A stretch of DNA of 64,000 bases, taken from the UHGV virus genome UHGV-0036853. One strand, given 5' to 3'. Below the pieces are notes generated by a model. It was not told the DNA's origin. It saw nothing but the letters and a program-made list of their open reading frames with translations, and searched no databases. The position numbers and the translations under genes are program-made. Shown here piece by piece: positions 25,626 through 60,534 of the stretch; position 1 is the first letter of the stretch; every line of letters starts with the position of its first letter. This stretch comes from a virus.

Positions 25626-25721
25626 CTGGTAGGTAGTTACTTACTTATCACAATGAGCGGATGATAGCGACTGGTGTCAGTTTTTGGAAGTGAAAACGGA
25701 AGGGAGTTGTTCTGGTGGGTG

Positions 25722-25812
25722 TCTTTTAAAAGACCTGCTTCCGTATATATATTTAATAAGTTACTTATTATTTAAATACAGAAACAGGTTCTGATTGAAG
25801 CTGCCAGACCGG
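25722..25812. repeat. AT-rich palindromic element, copy A
   Basis: cctgcttccgtatatat..ttaataagttacttattattta..cagaaacagg shared almost exactly with 48965-49018; arms form a long hairpin. Confidence 0.6.
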
Positions 25813-25818
25813 AAGTTG

Positions 25819-26178
25819 TCAGCCTTTTTTCATGAGTTCTCGCTTGATTTCATCGGTACGCATCGTTACATCGGCAGCTGTGATCGCCTCGTTAAGTTTC
25901 ACGATGTCCTCGATTTCCTGCGGTGTCTTCTCCGCAAGATGGAAAATAGCAGCACGAATCACATCAGAGCGGGTGAATTTCTCGAAGCGAGGGATGAACT
26001 TCATCATCTCCAGCAGTTCGAAGTATTCGTCTTCCAGTGACATTGTGCGGCTTTTAATTTTCTCTTTGCCACGAGTCGGGCGTCCCTGTGGTCTGACTGG
26101 TTGGCGCAAAGGAGTTGTGTTCTTAGCCGGTGCATCAGGCTCTTTGCGCTTTGCTAGGTCACCCATTTTCATGGACAT
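25819..26178 (-). CDS. small partition protein (ParG/ParB-like centromere-binding candidate)
   Basis: 119-aa basic ORF immediately downstream of parA with overlapping stop/start. Confidence 0.45.
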   Translation of the reverse strand: MSMKMGDLAKRKEPDAPAKNTTPLRQPVRPQGRPTRGKEKIKSRTMSLEDEYFELLEMMKFIPRFEKFTRSDVIRAAIFHLAEKTPQEIEDIVKLNEAITAADVTMRTDEIKRELMKKG

Positions 26179-45356: not shown

Positions 45357-46931
45357 TCACTCGTTCTCTTGAGTAGATGAGTCCCCATTCCCTCGGGGTT
45401 GATCTTGCCCGCTTTCTTGGGCCACACCACGATCATAAGTAAGTACTGACTTATTTTCAAGGGTATTTAGATCATTTTTTGGCGGAAAATTCAAGAGATC
45501 TTTATCAAATTCCTTTTTCATCGCCTCAGTAATGTTCGGGAAAATCTTCTCAATAAGCATTTCCATCTGGTGACGACGTACAGAGTCCGGTGCCTGAAGT
45601 AATGACAGTTTCTCGGCAACAGAAAATTCATCTGTAAGGCCACGAATATCGAAACTTTCTGGATACGCAATTAAAGAGTGGTCTTCGTCCAGATCTACCC
45701 CCATCCATTTCGCAACCAGTAGCATGATTTGGCGTTCAGCCCTTTCCAGACGCTCTGCTTTTGTGACAAGCAAGCTATTTACACGCTGGAAGTCATACAT
45801 TTTTGCGGCACCAGATGAGTTATCGATTCCCTGTGCGTTGTCCTGCTTCGTTCGCTCACCAGCTACACCAACTGAATGGTAGATTTCGTTAATCACCGTC
45901 TTAATCGTAGTGATGATCATCTGAGCTTGTTTCGGGTCTGGTGACAGATAAAACGGCTGGTTTCCACCTTCAGAATCGTAGGTGAAGACTCGCTTTGTGC
46001 CCATTTCAAGCACTTTAGTGTGGTTTTCATCACCAGGTAAAAGCGACTGTACCGGTATAGCCAACTGGCTAAATGTCTGATCCTGAATAATGGCATCAAG
46101 GTTTGACAGATAGTTTGCAACCGCACGATCAAGATAAGCGATATCATCGATCAACGATGGGCTGAAATACGGTGATTCACTTTCTCCAATACAATCAACA
46201 GGAAACACAGGAACTACGCCGAGATTATGCTCACCGCTATCCTCTAAAATAACTTTTGCCTGACGGCGACCTGCTCCACCAGCGCCCTTCTTCACTTCCT
46301 CACGGAACAGATACCACTCGTTTTGTGTCCACAGACGATAACGTTGGTATTCCTGACCTGTAGAAGTAAAAGGATCTGCGTCATCACGAGCGACTTCCAC
46401 AATTAACGCCCACAACATATTCCCGTCGTCGTCCCATGCCACATCCAGCATTTGCTGAGGTGAAATCCAGTAGGCGTAGGCGCGAGCATCTTTCTTTTTC
46501 TCGTCAGCTACTGACTCAACATCACCACTCATCGTGCTATCGACAACAACCCATATGCGACCGTAAATAGACGACTGCAAATCAATAGCGGCCATAAATG
46601 AGTCAATAGAGGCATTCTGGCGAGTCGCACGTTTCCAGAAATTGCGGATCTGCTCTGGTGCCTCTTCGATATTTCTATGAATGTCTTCTTTAAAGAGATA
46701 TTTGTTGATGAGGTTTACCACCTCACGAGTGTGGTTGAAGCGATAAGCACGTTCAACTCGCTCCTTAAACTCCTGATCTCCCTCTTTAAAGTAACGAAAG
46801 ATATTGTCTGTAAACCAACCACGCCCGCCAGCGTAAGTGCTGGCGAGGAAGTCCCAATGTTCTTTTTTCTTTTCGTATTCCGGGTGGCGTCGCGCCACCA
46901 GATCCTTAATTTGTTTGTCGTTCAATTCCAT
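45357..46931 (-). CDS. portal protein
   Basis: 524 aa; immediately downstream of the large terminase. Confidence 0.7.
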   Translation of the reverse strand: MELNDKQIKDLVARRHPEYEKKKEHWDFLASTYAGGRGWFTDNIFRYFKEGDQEFKERVERAYRFNHTREVVNLINKYLFKEDIHRNIEEAPEQIRNFWKRATRQNASIDSFMAAIDLQSSIYGRIWVVVDSTMSGDVESVADEKKKDARAYAYWISPQQMLDVAWDDDGNMLWALIVEVARDDADPFTSTGQEYQRYRLWTQNEWYLFREEVKKGAGGAGRRQAKVILEDSGEHNLGVVPVFPVDCIGESESPYFSPSLIDDIAYLDRAVANYLSNLDAIIQDQTFSQLAIPVQSLLPGDENHTKVLEMGTKRVFTYDSEGGNQPFYLSPDPKQAQMIITTIKTVINEIYHSVGVAGERTKQDNAQGIDNSSGAAKMYDFQRVNSLLVTKAERLERAERQIMLLVAKWMGVDLDEDHSLIAYPESFDIRGLTDEFSVAEKLSLLQAPDSVRRHQMEMLIEKIFPNITEAMKKEFDKDLLNFPPKNDLNTLENKSVLTYDRGVAQESGQDQPRGNGDSSTQENE

Positions 46932-46957: not shown

Positions 46958-48214
46958 CTATCGAGAACCACCAAGAATAACACGGTTTTTGACTGGATAC
47001 CTACGATGTACTGGATAGCCCAATGCGTCTGCACTATGCTCAATGCCACCTGTCTTATCCATATCTCGTGTTCCAGGCTTGTAGATGACTTTTTCCAGTG
47101 AATCAATCAAATGCTTGCACTTCGGATCGATATACAACCGGATATCTCCAGATGCGGTCATCAGCATTCGGTTAACAGCATTAACACGATCCGCAATTGG
47201 CGGGTGCTTTTTCGAATAATCGACACGTAAGAATCCCTTCTCTTTGAAAATGTCGACGTCAGACTCCCCGCGAGCATGTTGGCGATAAGCACCTGCCGGA
47301 TCTGGAAATACCGTTATCTGTGATTTCCAGCGCCAGAAGCGTCTCTCAAGCTCATCACAAACCTCTGCCGTGTTAGAGGAAAAGAGCACCAATTCATCAA
47401 TTGCCCATAGCTCGCCGTTTGGCTGAGGTTGCAAAATTACGGAAGACATCGGGTCAATGTTGAAGTCCTGTCCTACCCATATAGGCAACCGAGGGTTGAA
47501 TTGAAGCGGTTTAACATGCACGTTACGATCGAACGGGTAGTAAACGCGACCGGACATGTTCTCAAAGCTGGCTAGGTACTCCTGAGCGAACGATTTGGGG
47601 TCCATATCGTTCTTAGCAGCTTCAATTTCCGCCGTAGGTACAAACGGAGAATCGGCAGTTACAAACTGCCAGCTCTTCCACTGTCCCTTTCGTTGCAGCT
47701 CTACGTTCTGACCTATAGTCCACAGTTTGTGAAATTCCGAGAAGCCTTTTGGCGTTCCAATGATCAGTGCACCGCCGCGTGTCGATGAAAGAGTTGGTCG
47801 TAGTACCTTGTACCAGGTATCAGCCTTCATATCCTGAAATTCATCAAGCACTACAAAATGCAACGCAACGCCGCGCAGAGTGTCAGGCTTATCAGCACCT
47901 TTAAGGGCGATCTCCGAACCGTTCTTCAACACGATTGTCATCGTGGTGTCGTTCTTTTTCCTAACCCACTTACGAGGCAGAACTTCCTGTAGATCGTCCC
48001 ACAAAATCTGACGAGCCATCTGATAAGTCGGGGCGACATACCAGACCCTTTGCTTTTTTTCCTTTGCAGCCGCACGAATAATAGTTGAGATCGACAACCG
48101 GGATTTCCCCCAGCGTCGACCAGCACAAACAACTTTAAATCGATGCGGTGACTGGAAGACTTTCATCTGTCCAGAATGCAACTGCACAAGACTTAGAGAG
48201 GACGGGATTGCCAT
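46958..48214 (-). CDS. terminase large subunit
   Basis: 418 aa; Walker A-like VVCAGRRWGKS; ATPase then nuclease layout. Confidence 0.85.
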   Translation of the reverse strand: MAIPSSLSLVQLHSGQMKVFQSPHRFKVVCAGRRWGKSRLSISTIIRAAAKEKKQRVWYVAPTYQMARQILWDDLQEVLPRKWVRKKNDTTMTIVLKNGSEIALKGADKPDTLRGVALHFVVLDEFQDMKADTWYKVLRPTLSSTRGGALIIGTPKGFSEFHKLWTIGQNVELQRKGQWKSWQFVTADSPFVPTAEIEAAKNDMDPKSFAQEYLASFENMSGRVYYPFDRNVHVKPLQFNPRLPIWVGQDFNIDPMSSVILQPQPNGELWAIDELVLFSSNTAEVCDELERRFWRWKSQITVFPDPAGAYRQHARGESDVDIFKEKGFLRVDYSKKHPPIADRVNAVNRMLMTASGDIRLYIDPKCKHLIDSLEKVIYKPGTRDMDKTGGIEHSADALGYPVHRRYPVKNRVILGGSR

Positions 48215-48846
48215 TATTCGTCCTCCCCTTCACTTCCATCATCTGTCGCATCAAATTCGCTTAGAGCTTCTTCTTCCAAAGTCTCAAGCAATTCGTCATC
48301 GATGATTTCAGGCTCGTCGTCTTCCTGACGTAATTTCGCCACCTGGGAAGGTGTAAGCTCACCAAATACCAAGTTCGGAATTTCTTCCTCGTCATTTTCT
48401 GCATGATCCATACCCAACGCTTTGGACGAAACTTCAAAGCATTTTGCAAGGGTATTACTTGCTCTCTGTAAGCTCTTGAGAGAATCCTCAATCGCCCCTA
48501 AAGGCTTACCCTCACGTTTGGCCGTAGTGACTTCGACCATCACCATCTGCCCCAACGCATACGCCCAGCCGTCATAACGTGTACGACGTTCTTCTATCTT
48601 TTCCGCACGGGCTTTAGCGCGAAGCTCTGCGTCAGATTTAAGAGACTCACGAACCATCTTCCCAACAGAGTCCGCGCCTTTCTCTAATCCTCGCTTTTTG
48701 AAATGTCTGGAGAGTGTTTCACGACGAATGCCGTACTCTTCCTCCAGCTTTGAGAGTGTATATTCGCCTGACGTCCATTTGGCTTCAGCTTCGGCCCACT
48801 CAGCTGGTGTCAGGCGAGTTTTTACCTCGTCTTTTTCGACCGTCAT
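48214..48846 (-). CDS. terminase small subunit
   Basis: 210 aa; N-terminal HTH-like segment, acidic C-terminus, stop overlaps the large-terminase start. Confidence 0.6.
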   Translation of the reverse strand: MTVEKDEVKTRLTPAEWAEAEAKWTSGEYTLSKLEEEYGIRRETLSRHFKKRGLEKGADSVGKMVRESLKSDAELRAKARAEKIEERRTRYDGWAYALGQMVMVEVTTAKREGKPLGAIEDSLKSLQRASNTLAKCFEVSSKALGMDHAENDEEEIPNLVFGELTPSQVAKLRQEDDEPEIIDDELLETLEEEALSEFDATDDGSEGEDE

Positions 48847-48940
48847 AGATCCCTCTAAAACACACAGAGCGCGTCCATGCGCTCTAAAACAACTTGTTTA
48901 CTGCATCTGCTAACCAACTTGTTTTCTGGGGTGTTTAATT

Positions 48941-49030
48941 AGGTCTGGGCATATCTTACTAAGCCTGCTTCCGTATATATTTAATAAGTTACTTATTATT
49001 TATATATACAGAAGCAGGTCTTTAAATAAG
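48941..49030. repeat. AT-rich palindromic element, copy B (nested inverted repeats)
   Basis: Core cctgcttccgtatatatttaataagttacttattatttatatatacagaagcaggtc matches 25722-25812; outer arms ggtctggg / cccagacc. Confidence 0.6.
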
Positions 49031-49042
49031 CTCCCAGACCGA

Positions 49043-49309
49043 TTACATCACCAGTAACTTCGCTTTGGCTCGACCTAAAGTGGTTAACCCAAGAGTCCGG
49101 CGGTGATAGCGATTGTCACTGCGTTGGCGCGTATGCCCTTTCTCCACCAGCCCCTTTTTTATCAGAGCGCGAATTGAGAACTGGATACTTTGCTTGGTTG
49201 TCTTGTACGGCAAAACTTCAAGCAATTCGTCCAGATCAAGTAGATGACCTCGCTCATAACCGAGATTGAGCGTTTTGATGATGTCCTTTTGTTTATCGGT
49301 TAACGTCAT
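49043..49309 (-). CDS. small basic DNA-binding protein (winged-helix-like)
   Basis: 88-aa ORF, Lys/Arg-rich. Confidence 0.4.
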   Translation of the reverse strand: MTLTDKQKDIIKTLNLGYERGHLLDLDELLEVLPYKTTKQSIQFSIRALIKKGLVEKGHTRQRSDNRYHRRTLGLTTLGRAKAKLLVM

Positions 49310-49318
49310 GGCAAATCC

Positions 49319-50209
49319 TTATGCCGGTAAAGCAATTTCTAACGGTTTATCCAAAGGTTGTTTGTCGAATGCCAGCAGTGGCAGCGTGTCAGGCAGTCGA
49401 CGGCCAAAGTCAGGGTTTCGGTACACACCATACAACGGAGACGTAAAGCTCAGGTTGTGAATGTCCTTGAGCAGCTTCACAATGCTGGCCTCGTCCACCA
49501 GACTGTCGGCAATGTCCTGAATCGTCGTGCCACGATTCCGCCCAGCTTTTGCCAGGGAACTGTTCTTGTGGTAGTCCGCCACCAGATCACGCAGTGCACG
49601 GCGACGACGAGACTCGCTCATTGCGAACAACTCTTTGACGATCGCCTCGTTATCACCCGGGTCAGAACGGAAATGGCGCTGGAATACACGCAGTGCACTT
49701 TCATAGCTCTTCGGTCGCTCAGGGCGGATGAACTTAAACCCTGCTTTCATGGCGAAGGGATTGTATTTGCTCATCGAGGACTGGATCTCAATGATTGGCC
49801 GGTCATGCATCCTGCTAACCAGGTTAATCATTCGATAAGAGACGCCTACGCCACGATACTGAGTATCCACAACTGAGCGACTGATCACCGCAAAGTTGTT
49901 ATTCACGTACCGACCCCAGTACTGGTTAGCCACGGTGGTATTAGTGGTTGGTTTCAACTTAGGAAACATGCGGTGGCGAGGTGCCAACAGTAGTTTCGGG
50001 TAAGCCATAACCACGACGCCCACCAGACGGTCATCAAGTTCGCAGCGATAGTAAGTTGGCGCGAAAGGTTTGCCGTCTGTTTTGTAGTGAAGCGACTTAA
50101 GAGCGTGCCAGTCCTCTACAGTTCCCTTTGTAACAGTCATTCGCTCCAGAAAGTCCAGATGACGCGGAAACTCTTCAGGGCGGTAGCGTTTAATGATGAT
50201 GTCCGTCAT
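49319..50209 (-). CDS. GNAT-like acetyltransferase-fold protein with C-terminal extension
   Basis: 296 aa; VGVVVMAY strand and motif-A-like RSVVDTQYRGVGVSYRMI; start overlaps upstream stop. Confidence 0.4.
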   Translation of the reverse strand: MTDIIIKRYRPEEFPRHLDFLERMTVTKGTVEDWHALKSLHYKTDGKPFAPTYYRCELDDRLVGVVVMAYPKLLLAPRHRMFPKLKPTTNTTVANQYWGRYVNNNFAVISRSVVDTQYRGVGVSYRMINLVSRMHDRPIIEIQSSMSKYNPFAMKAGFKFIRPERPKSYESALRVFQRHFRSDPGDNEAIVKELFAMSESRRRRALRDLVADYHKNSSLAKAGRNRGTTIQDIADSLVDEASIVKLLKDIHNLSFTSPLYGVYRNPDFGRRLPDTLPLLAFDKQPLDKPLEIALPA

Positions 50210-50871
50210 GAATGGACCTCATCGTGACTACCATTGTGATATTCCACCTTCACGCGTTCTTTGTAGTGCTTGGTGATCTGCATATCCGGGCGCAGCGCGT
50301 TCTTCAGGTCTTCGTGAGTCGTCGCCACCATTACCGTCGCACCAACCTTTCGAGCGGCACGCTGGAGGTTAGACGCCACAACCTGAGCGGTTACACGGTC
50401 GAGAACAGCGCCGAACTCGTCAGCAGCCCACACTTTAGCGCCTGACTCAATCAGTTTGGCAATCTTGAGACGATATTTCTGGCCGTCTGACATTTCAGAA
50501 GGCTTGCGAACAAACAGATATGCATCGTTCAGACCAGCCATAGATAACAACCCAAGCGCATCACTGGTCGTTTTGCCCAACTGATCGATGACGTTAACCT
50601 CATTATCGAAGGTAAAATCATCGATGGAGGCTACAGACAGCCCTTCATCCTTCATCTGTCGTTGCAACTCGCGCAGCACAACGGATTTGCCGGAACCGGA
50701 TTGGCCGGTGATGTACACCACATCGCCCTGCTTCACTTCCAGCTCCAGATTGTCGTAAAGCGTCCACTCTTTTTCGTCCAGGCCAAGCCCGAACGACTCA
50801 GCGATTTCCAACGTGCGCGTGGTTTTATTTACGCGTGTCTGAAACGATACGTTGATGATGTATTTGCTCAT
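50206..50871 (-). CDS. stand-alone ABC-type ATPase
   Basis: 221 aa; Walker A GQSGSGKS; signature-like SDGQKYRL; Walker B VWAADEF; H-loop TTHEDL. Confidence 0.65.
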   Translation of the reverse strand: MSKYIINVSFQTRVNKTTRTLEIAESFGLGLDEKEWTLYDNLELEVKQGDVVYITGQSGSGKSVVLRELQRQMKDEGLSVASIDDFTFDNEVNVIDQLGKTTSDALGLLSMAGLNDAYLFVRKPSEMSDGQKYRLKIAKLIESGAKVWAADEFGAVLDRVTAQVVASNLQRAARKVGATVMVATTHEDLKNALRPDMQITKHYKERVKVEYHNGSHDEVHS

Positions 50872-51536
50872 GCAGCCATCTCCCCGGAAGAGATCTTCTC
50901 CGCATATGCCACAAATGCGTCTACCCCGCTTTCTCCCGTCATTTCTTCCATGTGGGCAAGCAAATCACCAACAACAATGGCAGAGCCAGCAGGGAGCGTT
51001 TTAAAGCCCAATACGTCGACAACACGTACTTCTTCCGCTGCAACTTCACGACTGATCTCGGTGTGTTCATCCTTCTGTCGTTTAGTTTCTTCGCCAAGAT
51101 CGATAACTAGCGAGTCGGTGTCCATTTCTTCTGTCATACTGCCAACGAGAACATTCAACTCACGCTCTTCAAAGCCGAAAACCTCGATATCGTCCAGAAC
51201 AAGCGACTCAAGCTCTTTCTGTAGCTTAATTGCATCGTAATCAATGCTGGCAAGTCGGTTATCTTCAAGGCGCTTCGCACGAACCTCGTCATCACTGAGA
51301 TCATCGCGAACAATAACCGGTACGCGCTCAAGTCCAGCAAAAATTGCAGCCTCACGGCGGCCGTGGCCAGTAATAATTACGTCGTTCTTATCGACCGTAA
51401 TTGGCTGGTCAAATCCGCGCTTTTTAATGGCTGCGGCTAGATCTCGGATCTGCTGTTCATCATGCTTTTTGGCATTCATCTCATAGGGAATAAGATCTGC
51501 CGGGTCGCGATATACGATTTCAAACTTTTTGGTCAT
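50868..51536 (-). CDS. ParB/Srx-fold (ParB N-terminal domain) protein 2
   Basis: Motif ITGHGRREAAIFAGLERVPVIV; start set to the internal ATG that overlaps the upstream stop (track ORF extends to 51569). Confidence 0.6.
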   Translation of the reverse strand: MTKKFEIVYRDPADLIPYEMNAKKHDEQQIRDLAAAIKKRGFDQPITVDKNDVIITGHGRREAAIFAGLERVPVIVRDDLSDDEVRAKRLEDNRLASIDYDAIKLQKELESLVLDDIEVFGFEERELNVLVGSMTEEMDTDSLVIDLGEETKRQKDEHTEISREVAAEEVRVVDVLGFKTLPAGSAIVVGDLLAHMEEMTGESGVDAFVAYAEKISSGEMAA

Positions 51537-52234
51537 TACATACGCTCCTTGTAGTAGTCGACCAGCCACACCAGAGCCTCACCAGCGTTCTCCATTTCAT
51601 TACCGGTGTTAATAGCCTGTTCTTTGATGATGTTTTTTATGGTTTCTGCAACACGATCTGACGCATCGAAAGTTACTTTGAAGCGCATGGTCTGATGTTC
51701 CGCACCCACACGTTCGGTTTTCTCCCGTTTGTCGGTATCGACAGGCTCATCACTACCACGAGACAACGCCTCCAGTGCTTCAAGGTCGATTGCCGCCTCT
51801 TTTGCTAAAACCATCGAGATTTCGTCGTCATACGGGGCGATTTCAGACAGTTGATAGTCAAGTTCTGACTGAATTTCTTCAATGAAGCGTTGCAATGCGA
51901 TTTGGTCGTCTTCACCGTATCGCTCGTTGTCCACCAGTGACATCTGTTTAGCTACGACATCGCTAATTTTGCCCACAGAAAGCACTGGAACCGTTGAAAT
52001 TCCTTGCTCAATAGCGGCACGCCAGCGATGTTCACCGCCGAGGATTTCAAAAAATCCATCTTCAAGTTCACGAGCCAAAATTGGCTTAAAAAAGCCCAAT
52101 TTTTCGATAGAACCTTTCAGTTTTTCAAAATTCTGCGCACCAACCGAATTGGTGTTCCAGGTATTCGGGCGAAGGTTGGCAACATCAACCTGCAAAATCG
52201 TGATTTTTACATCCATTTTATTGCTACAATCCAC
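51536..52234 (-). CDS. ParB/Srx-fold (ParB N-terminal domain) protein 1
   Basis: 232 aa; motif ILGGEHRWRAAIEQGISTVPV. Confidence 0.6.
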   Translation of the reverse strand: MDCSNKMDVKITILQVDVANLRPNTWNTNSVGAQNFEKLKGSIEKLGFFKPILARELEDGFFEILGGEHRWRAAIEQGISTVPVLSVGKISDVVAKQMSLVDNERYGEDDQIALQRFIEEIQSELDYQLSEIAPYDDEISMVLAKEAAIDLEALEALSRGSDEPVDTDKREKTERVGAEHQTMRFKVTFDASDRVAETIKNIIKEQAINTGNEMENAGEALVWLVDYYKERM

Positions 52235-59253: not shown

Positions 59254-59582
59254 ATCCTCACTGCGTAAACATGTTGTTTTCTTGTTGGTGTAATTATCGC
59301 AGTGTAGATAAGGCATAAAAGAAGTTAATACAGGCTGAATACACAAGAAAGGTTCTCGAAGTTGATAGCCAGGTTTCAAACTAACCTTCGGTTATTAAAA
59401 GTCATTTAAGACCACCAATGCTGGTGGCCTTAATAATTATCGCCCGATTACGCTAAGGATCTTTTCCTCAACTGATTTGTTGTTGCGACTAAACTGCCTT
59501 GCGTATCTAATGACAGAAGAGGCGTTTCGCTTTCTGACCATTTCGGCTCTTTCCTTCAGGCGTTTCTTGAAATCGCCCATAT

Positions 59583-59999
59583 TTACCACCAGGCGCAGAA
59601 CGTCAGTCTGTTATTGTGAAAGTCGTGGTTCCTGATCAGGTCTTCCACAAGTTTTTTCAGCTTGTCCACGTCATGCCAGTAACCTTCATCGTACTCCTGA
59701 CTGCCGAAGAAAAAACCTTCCCGGGTAGGCAAGTACTCTTCGCAATTACTTTCGTTTATGTGCATCAAATGAGCCTTCAGAAAACAAATGTCATTCATCG
59801 TTAATTCTAAAAGCTCACAATTTTCGACTTCACCTACGTTGCGCTCCATCCACCCAACGAGCGCATTGAACTTACGGAAGTAAGCAACCCGCTTTCTGGA
59901 TGCCTCATTATTCAGATCGTTTTTTGGCTGCGTCTCAATGTAAATATCAAGCCCCATGATGGTTTCCTTATTAAGTTGCTTCAGTGAAATCATTTTCAC
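59583..59999 (-). CDS. hypothetical protein
   Basis: 138-aa ORF (track start is GTG; ATG alternatives at 59993 and 59957); class II motif at 60008-60030. Confidence 0.45.
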   Translation of the reverse strand: MKMISLKQLNKETIMGLDIYIETQPKNDLNNEASRKRVAYFRKFNALVGWMERNVGEVENCELLELTMNDICFLKAHLMHINESNCEEYLPTREGFFFGSQEYDEGYWHDVDKLKKLVEDLIRNHDFHNNRLTFCAWW

Positions 60000-60074
60000 A
60001 AATCAGATAAGGCAGAAAACAAATTGTTATCGGGTATAAGAAAATGGCGCGGTTTACGCGCCATTTAAAGAGGA

Positions 60075-60470
60075 TTAAGCGAATACGCTTTCAGGGATTA
60101 AGGTGTCAGCAGGAATGCCGGAGGTAATACGCAGACCGTACTGACCAATCCAGGTGGTGCTGGTGTTCAGGCTGGAGGTGAATACGGAATTAACCATATT
60201 CATCATGGTTTCAAACACCTCTTCATCAACCTGGCGGAAGTAGTTCTCGATTTTCAGCAGCAGCGGGTCAGTTGCATCGAGAATGGACTGGTATTGAGTC
60301 GCGTACTCGCCGCCGGAGGCATCACCTTTACGCACGATCGTACTGGCCTGTACTTCGGCACCAGTTTCGGTGTTGTACGTAACAACGGTGATTTTTGCCA
60401 CATTCTTACCTTCGGCGGTTTCAGAGGCATAGTAAACATCAACTGTCAGTTTTTCGCGTTTAACGGTCAT
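60075..60470 (-). CDS. hypothetical protein
   Basis: 131 aa; RBS GGAGAG; class I motif at 60514-60530 upstream. Confidence 0.5.
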   Translation of the reverse strand: MTVKREKLTVDVYYASETAEGKNVAKITVVTYNTETGAEVQASTIVRKGDASGGEYATQYQSILDATDPLLLKIENYFRQVDEEVFETMMNMVNSVFTSSLNTSTTWIGQYGLRITSGIPADTLIPESVFA

Positions 60471-60534
60471 TTCACTCTCCGTAGTGTCTTGGTTATTTTT
60501 CTATTTTATAGTCGTAGGTATGTACTTACAATAC

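Follow-up and report, generated by a model that had tools for sequence, protein, structure and literature searches.

Organization of the locus

The window (the whole stretch of 64,000 nucleotides of virus genome UHGV-0036853 that was analyzed) is, as read from its sequence, an SSU5/pHCM2-like phage-plasmid: the region of interest shares 98–99% identity with E. coli members of the SSU5/pHCM2 phage-plasmid group, for example pLF82 (phage Cyrano), and 786 plasmid records from Klebsiella, Escherichia, Enterobacter, Yersinia, Salmonella and other genera matched it. Phage-plasmids of the SSU5 type, some of them bearing resistance genes, are common in E. coli, Salmonella, Klebsiella and Yersinia, and next to nothing has been described of how they regulate their genes or package their DNA. 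The element considered here occupies an intergenic region amid minus-strand genes. The features of this region, in window coordinates, are as follows:

49043-49309, minus strand: gene for an 88-aa winged-helix protein, the last gene of the upstream unit
49031-49040, minus strand: outer inverted-repeat arm, 5′ side of the coding strand, GGTCTGGGAG; kept in B copies
48964-49018, no strand assigned: core palindrome, copy B; 55 bp, AT-rich with a GC clamp, nearly invariant in 46 distinct relatives
48944-48951, minus strand: outer inverted-repeat arm, 3′ side of the coding strand, CCCAGACC
48887-48928, minus strand: two 13-bp palindromic motifs, AAACAAGTTGKTT, candidate sites for a dimeric protein
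48855-48886, minus strand: small GC hairpin GAGCGC-ATGGAC-GCGCTC (terminator scan), then UGUGUGUUUUAG, leading into the terS ribosome-binding site
48214-48846, minus strand: terS, putative small terminase gene, overlapping the start of terL
46958-48214, minus strand: terL, of the Terminase_6N/6C type
45357-46931, minus strand: portal gene

Structural models give a MarR-like winged helix for the 88-aa protein (Foldseek probability 1.0, TM 0.7–0.76) and, for TerS, an N-terminal helix-turn-helix followed by a long coiled coil. The TerS model returned no significant structural match in Foldseek, and the putative small-terminase assignment is based on position and architecture. A sequence search of the PDB returned nothing for TerS, the 88-aa protein or the 249-aa protein whose gene lies beside a second copy of the element (see below).

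The genes upstream also deserve mention. Two ParB-like genes precede a cluster encoding an ABC-type ATPase, both in the window and in Klebsiella pJN2-26. The ABC-type ATPase, an ATPase-acetyltransferase fusion and the small gene before terS (49319-52234 in the window) are kept in Pseudomonas phage nickie (5011-7187); since nickie is strictly lytic, the conserved part of the cluster points to a phage function rather than one in plasmid partition. Three database proteins (P0067, P0077 and P0078) combine a ParB-like nuclease domain (PF02195) with a segment 84–85% identical to the TerS of the window; they may be fusions of the ParB-like genes with terS, or the product of frameshifted gene calls that join them.

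Copy B is predicted to form a nested hairpin

The 88-aa gene and terS are separated by 196 bp which contain, in coding-strand order, a nested palindrome, the two 13-bp motifs and the small GC hairpin. A preliminary description of this DNA had reported an AT-rich palindrome between the winged-helix gene and terS, and that report was borne out (core 48964-49018, both genes on the minus strand); its placement of the palindrome upstream of terS holds when the region is read on the minus strand, and not otherwise. On the plus strand the core reads cctgcttccgtatatatttaataagttacttattatttatatatacagaagcagg. A 10-bp GC clamp (coding strand CCTGCTTCTG / CGGAAGCAGG) encloses a 35-bp centre composed solely of A and T, within which lies a conserved asymmetric internal loop. 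Around the core is the outer inverted repeat noted previously, ggtctggg at 48944-48951 and cccagacc at 49033-49040 on the given strand; the second arm falls 3–10 nt beyond position 49030, where the element had been taken to end. On the coding strand the first outer arm, GGTCTGGGAG, begins 2 nt past the stop codon of the 88-aa winged-helix gene, and the other, CCCAGACC, is followed by TAATTAAAC, which is devoid of a U-tract.

Secondary structure predictions show that the region 48935-49045, as a single strand, forms one nested hairpin of ∼100 nt. As RNA its folding energy is −50.6 kcal/mol (z = −9.9) and as DNA its z-score is −7.6; not one of 200 shuffled sequences folded as well. The core hairpin by itself reaches −30.8 kcal/mol (z = −9.1) and provides the stable, GC-closed stem expected of an intrinsic terminator. 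Over all hairpins tested, folding z-scores ranged from −4.1 to −9.9. The predicted fold of copy B consists of 17 contiguous pairs, an internal loop and a further 7 pairs, plus the lower stems: a double-stranded stem of about two helical turns or more, interrupted by internal loops, as at RNase III-type sites.

A search of Rfam with the element gave nothing above any gathering score, the sub-threshold hits being microRNA-precursor look-alikes only. A scan for sigma-70 promoters found none at copy B and, at copy A, weak plus-strand matches only. The element, which comes in three copies per genome, appears to be undescribed.

A family of three copies per genome

A second copy (copy A) is located in the same window:

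25734-25788, no strand assigned: core palindrome, copy A; 109 nt upstream of the 249-aa gene, the first of a helicase/primase module
25721-25733, minus strand: tail of copy A, coding strand TCTTTTAAAAGAC, with a U-tract directly after the clamp

That copies A and B have a common core, as the preliminary description had it, is evident from exact matches of 17 and 22 nt. The 17-mer CCTGCTTCCGTATATAT is found at 25734 and 48964, with a one-mismatch match on the opposite strand at 49002-49018 (chance expectation 0.12); the 22-mer TTAATAAGTTACTTATTATTTA is found at 25753 and 48981 and nowhere else in the window (expectation 0.00). No shuffled sequence yielded these matches. Similarity between the two copies extends over ∼80–130 bp and includes GCTSCCAGACCG.

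Salmonella SSU5, Klebsiella pJN2-26 and E. coli Cyrano each contain three copies, in characteristic positions. Copy B lies between the winged-helix gene and terS, ahead of the packaging and structural genes; copy A lies 107–130 nt upstream of the 249-aa gene, which heads a helicase/primase/ligase module; copy C, outside the window, directly follows an adenine methyltransferase gene. Every copy starts a few bases past a stop codon and lies ∼95–190 nt upstream of the gene that opens the next module. Together the three copies cut the SSU5 circle into segments of 33, 45 and 25 kb.

Repeated, sequence-conserved intergenic palindromes bring to mind the REP/BIME elements of enterobacteria, which sit at operon 3′ ends and have been connected with mRNA stability. 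In contrast to these, the present element is much longer, has two to three copies, belongs to one phage-plasmid lineage and is absent from E. coli chromosomes. A survey of 5426 complete E. coli genomes put 1041 of its 1043 matches on SSU5-like plasmids, with 2–3 sites each; the many copies across the host genome that are typical of REP-like sequences were thus not seen.

Copy A differs among genomes in what precedes it. In the window it follows parA and a 119-aa gene, while in other genomes up to 1.3 kb of cargo lies in between. Between 71 and 1300 nt separate the core from the parA / 119-aa operon upstream, depending on which cargo genes lie directly against the upstream edge of the core; the downstream side is constant. 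Such junctions are found in the window (25789-25818) and at loci L096, L099, L144 and L168. The palindrome of copy A therefore marks an insertion and recombination junction, and the arrangement is as expected if genes were inserted ahead of an existing terminator. The 119-aa gene itself (25819-26178) is a RelE/ParE toxin in the Cyrano annotation and is without a Pfam hit; by its position and our own reading of its sequence, the protein looks more like a candidate small ribbon-helix-helix partition protein than a toxin.

T-runs distinguish copies A and C from copy B

The tails of the copies were compared in 36 IMG/VR contigs carrying both A and B, in which 33 A copies were found. In the 8 nt after the clamp the A copies average 5.2 T, with runs of 3–5 T in 33/33 and seven different tails. 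The corresponding stretch of the B copies (in the window the tail after the core is CTTAGTAA) averages 3.2 T and the longest run is at most two in 36/36, across 12 different tails. C copies have T4–T5 in the tail after the clamp, the tails being CTTTTTAAGAC (CTTTTT), CTTTTCC and CTGTTTTAT (CTGTTTT); one C copy (L112) is without a T-run whichever way it is read.

The predicted anatomy of copies A and C is that of complete intrinsic terminators oriented with transcription, and that of B, in this lineage, is not. With a U-tract right after the GC clamp, A and C should act as intrinsic terminators. Copy B, like A and C, follows a stop codon at the 3′ end of a transcription unit and on the transcribed strand, but it has no U-tract immediately 3′ of the stem. 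The earlier suggestion of a terminator or attenuator is thus apt for A and C, where hairpin, T-run and unit end coincide; at B, with no U-tract after either stem, the defining feature is absent and termination is not supported. In some other lineages B does have T3–T4 after the outer stem (TTTT in SSU5-type genomes), and the tail that follows the clamp at the B position is CTTTT in a relative whose TerS is 68% identical.

Signs of selection on base pairing and on sequence

Few non-coding stretches of the B intergenic region are as well conserved as the core; the surrounding spacers diverge. Where the stem does vary, changes on its two sides tend to compensate. Clamp position 9 passes through the series C-G / U-G / U-A; copies C and A of pJN2-26 carry paired double changes (CCTGCTTTCG/CGAAAGCAGG and CCTGTTTC/GAAACAGG, respectively); the pair flanking the clamp is GC, AU or UA among 20 B copies; and a pair of the B outer stem has changed from GC to AU in three sequences. 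The relative with 68% TerS identity has kept the clamp, and its inner helix is different yet still pairs. The fact that the three clamps within a single genome differ, each being self-complementary, implicates base pairing as a target of selection and argues against one protein reading all three. The core sequence, above all the terS-proximal arm (ATATATACGGAAGCAGG in 32/36 B copies) and the internal loop, is conserved beyond the needs of a hairpin, a hint that it is read by a protein as well.

Single-sided changes might indicate in which nucleic acid the hairpin is read. In A and B nearly all are C-to-T changes in the 5′ arm, giving on the coding strand ∼58 U·G cells versus one C·A cell, a tally made by hand in related sequences and reflecting few independent events. 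This bias fits a hairpin read in coding-strand RNA. It is, however, reversed (C·A on the coding strand) in SSU5-type C copies and in one Klebsiella B variant and, being contradicted in C, is suggestive at most of an RNA as opposed to a DNA role.

These patterns bear on the idea that the palindromes are double-stranded DNA sites of a dimeric protein, serving either as operators through which a global regulator controls three lytic modules or as dispersed centromere or organizer sites. There is precedent for the latter: the plasmid-prophage N15 has palindromic partition sites scattered around its genome, some among phage genes, and the present element likewise consists of several palindromic sites dispersed on a plasmid-prophage genome. 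Conservation beyond structural need would be accounted for, as would the dispersal of three copies, the fact that A directly follows the parA / 119-aa operon in the simplest arrangement, the winged-helix gene and two ParB-like genes adjoining B, and the absence of the element from nickie, a lytic relative with no plasmid lifestyle. On the other hand, clamps that differ and are nonetheless self-complementary, as in pJN2-26, are hard to square with a single protein, and in N15 terms the copies are unlike centromeres in just this respect: they differ within a genome, each matching itself. The predicted partition protein here is small (119 aa) and not of the SopB/ParB type. Moreover, where cargo has been inserted A is found beside the replication genes and away from par, the placement of T-runs follows the direction of transcription, and 55 bp is long for an operator. 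We regard a protein-binding site of this kind as quite improbable.

Inversion and possible exchange at the palindromes

In some copies the centre or the arms are inverted relative to B: examples are copy A of Cyrano (L201, 14160-14212) and copy C of SSU5 (L203, record 78304-78360). A flipped centre suggests recombination between the arms or hairpin-templated repair, and fits the dynamics of a DNA hairpin or cruciform as well as it fits RNA. IMG/VR contigs also include mosaic genomes in which an E. coli-type A accompanies an SSU5-type B, or the reverse. Copies A and B have identical cores in 6/33 contigs, pointing to exchange of modules or to gene conversion there.

It is conceivable, if very improbable in our judgment, that the element functions in DNA replication or recombination: as an unwinding element, as a single-strand initiation hairpin, or simply as a palindrome prone to recombination, its copies held alike by gene conversion, at which modules are exchanged. 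The mosaic genomes and identical cores, the flipped centres and the cargo junctions at the core edge are in keeping with such a role, as are the position of A at the head of the helicase/primase module and the division of the SSU5 circle into three segments. Class-specific T-runs and starts just past stop codons would nevertheless go unexplained, an unwinding element needs no complementarity between arms, and the plasmid RepA is encoded elsewhere (SSU5 59428-60492).

A target of a protelomerase or recombinase was also considered and rejected: as direct repeats the copies would delete whole modules, and the arms have neither the size nor the spacer of known core sites.

Candidate signals between copy B and terS

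The two 13-mers that follow copy B, AAACAAGTTGKTT, are candidate sites for the winged-helix protein or for TerS. The terS-proximal 13-mer is almost invariant in relatives, and Pseudomonas phage nickie, whose TerS is 33% identical, likewise has an inverted pair of ACAAGTTGTT upstream of terS.

The small GC hairpin at 48855-48886 shows compensatory variation (GAGCGC/GCGCTC, GAGCAC/GTGCTC and CGGCGC/GCGCCG), and in nickie an analogous hairpin with a T-run stands ahead of terS. Judging by these features it resembles an intrinsic terminator and is a likely attenuator or antitermination target of the late operon, and a better attenuator candidate than copy B. The preliminary description had raised attenuation for B itself; the smaller hairpin with its U-run, 80 nt downstream, fits that role instead.

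Is copy B a packaging site?

The position of copy B invites a further interpretation, also anticipated in the preliminary description, namely that B is a cos or pac site at which packaging begins. Terminase would assemble on the AAACAAGTTG repeats and cut the AT-rich core; copies A and C, with no flanking sites, would be left uncut. We consider this rather unlikely, though the chief rival to the explanation given below. Copy B offers a precise site at which to ask where the packaging signal lies and, should it prove to be one, the answer would bear on the prediction of transduction and on engineering.

The layout is reminiscent of lambda cosN-cosB-Nu1: B is immediately upstream of terS, with the two palindromic 13-mers in between, so that a partly symmetric site precedes terS and repeated candidate protein-binding motifs separate the two. 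Unlike lambda cos, the element is present in three copies, its arms pair with compensatory changes, and the TerL belongs to a different family. B is also the most conserved copy, its terS-proximal arm being nearly invariant, and it alone has no T-run, a feature that a DNA site does not need. Set against these points, the compensatory changes indicate base pairing, for which terminase recognition has no need. Nor is the core unique: each genome has three, and those of A and B can be identical (the 6/33 contigs above). The flanks do differ, so that a larger composite site may yet be unique.

The way in which genome records open is equally two-sided. The GenBank record of SSU5 ends with ...GACTTATTA and begins with AATATATACGG, inside the terS-proximal arm; the Cyrano record opened 1 nt from the SSU5 opening; and the SSU5 start was not copied from pHCM2. 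But ordinary contigs from isolates and metagenomes also start inside the palindrome, at offsets of 0, 7, 17, 22, 22, 32 and 59 nt, and one of them starts at the same base as the Cyrano record. Because ordinary assemblies break inside the palindrome with no physical DNA end, the opening of a record is weak evidence. Furthermore, across its junction the SSU5 record permutes the plasmid sequence exactly, and no overhang bases are lost or duplicated. Of the packaging-initiation claim there thus stand the adjacency to terS and the opening of the SSU5 and Cyrano records inside the element; the three copies per genome and the ordinary contigs that start there count against it.

Related terminases were also compared. 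The lytic phage nickie has a homologous TerS/TerL module and the same gene order (ABC ATPase, ATPase-acetyltransferase, small gene, terS, terL, portal), yet no AT-rich palindrome. Rather than being kept wherever the terminase is homologous, the palindrome can be traced as far as relatives with 68% TerS identity, and a similar arm turns up in Photobacterium (47%); Xenorhabdus and Morganella (TerS 53%) and nickie (33%) lack it. The TerL, of the Terminase_6N/6C type, has relatives in T5-, T1- and Jersey-like phages, and we know of no cohesive-end packagers among these. At ∼24–30% identity to such characterized relatives, TerL is not decisive as to packaging type. In the searchable literature we found no account of genome ends, cos, headful packaging or palindromes for SSU5-like phages, and the Cyrano paper gives no termini.

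A composite of the packaging and terminator readings is that B is a packaging site cut in its AT-rich centre, and that the core has been re-used, with a U-tail, as terminators at two module boundaries. This we hold to be unlikely. If it were so, one sequence would serve as a DNA signal at one place and as an RNA signal at two others.

A proposed role at the boundaries of transcription units

The best explanation, and one to which we would give about an even chance, is that the copies constitute a family of long terminator or insulator hairpins at the boundaries of transcription units, of which B is a nested variant that is leaky or a site of processing. The genome appears to be transcribed almost wholly in one direction, and the hairpins would separate its modules. 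Copies A and C would halt transcription arriving from upstream, such as that of the partition operon before it enters the lytic replication genes, and C would shield the module that follows the methylase gene. If so, the element marks a probable insulation of lysogenic transcription, such as that of the partition genes, from the lytic modules, along with places at which cargo inserts.

The likeness to intrinsic terminators lies in a GC-closed hairpin placed after the last gene of a unit, a covarying stem and, in A and C, a T-run. The element departs from them in its stem, which is ∼25 bp long, AT-rich and interrupted by an internal loop, in a sequence that is kept across genera and copies, and in the absence of a U-tract from B. 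We infer an action in RNA, with termination at A and C and with read-through or processing at B. Since B has no U-tract, polymerase is expected to pause there and largely to read through; the outer stem would then extend the same core to the hairpin of ∼100 nt. The resulting long double-stranded RNA could be a 3′ stabilizer of the winged-helix operon message, an RNase III-type processing site, or both. Entry into terS would be controlled by the two AAACAAGTTG motifs and by the small GC hairpin, whose U-run precedes the ribosome-binding site.

Arrangements of this kind are familiar. Lambda tI/sib and the RNase III sites of T7 are long intergenic hairpins with internal loops in polycistronic phage transcripts, and at lambda tI/sib the extended stem forms only on read-through. 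Similarly, the outer stem of B would form only once polymerase passes the core. There is no sequence similarity to the lambda or T7 sites, and in contrast to these the present element is known from sequence alone.

The palindromes also explain why short-read assemblies break at the same places in these plasmids. Many records of the 88-aa protein are ‘partial’, contigs start in the core, and 20–50 kb is the most frequent size of the longest terS-bearing contig. In Photobacterium ganghwense a 148-kb contig (L226) ends within a similar arm, ATATATATTGGAAGCAAGG, ∼250 nt upstream of a gene homologous to terS (47% identity), so that elements related to this one may occur well beyond the Enterobacterales.
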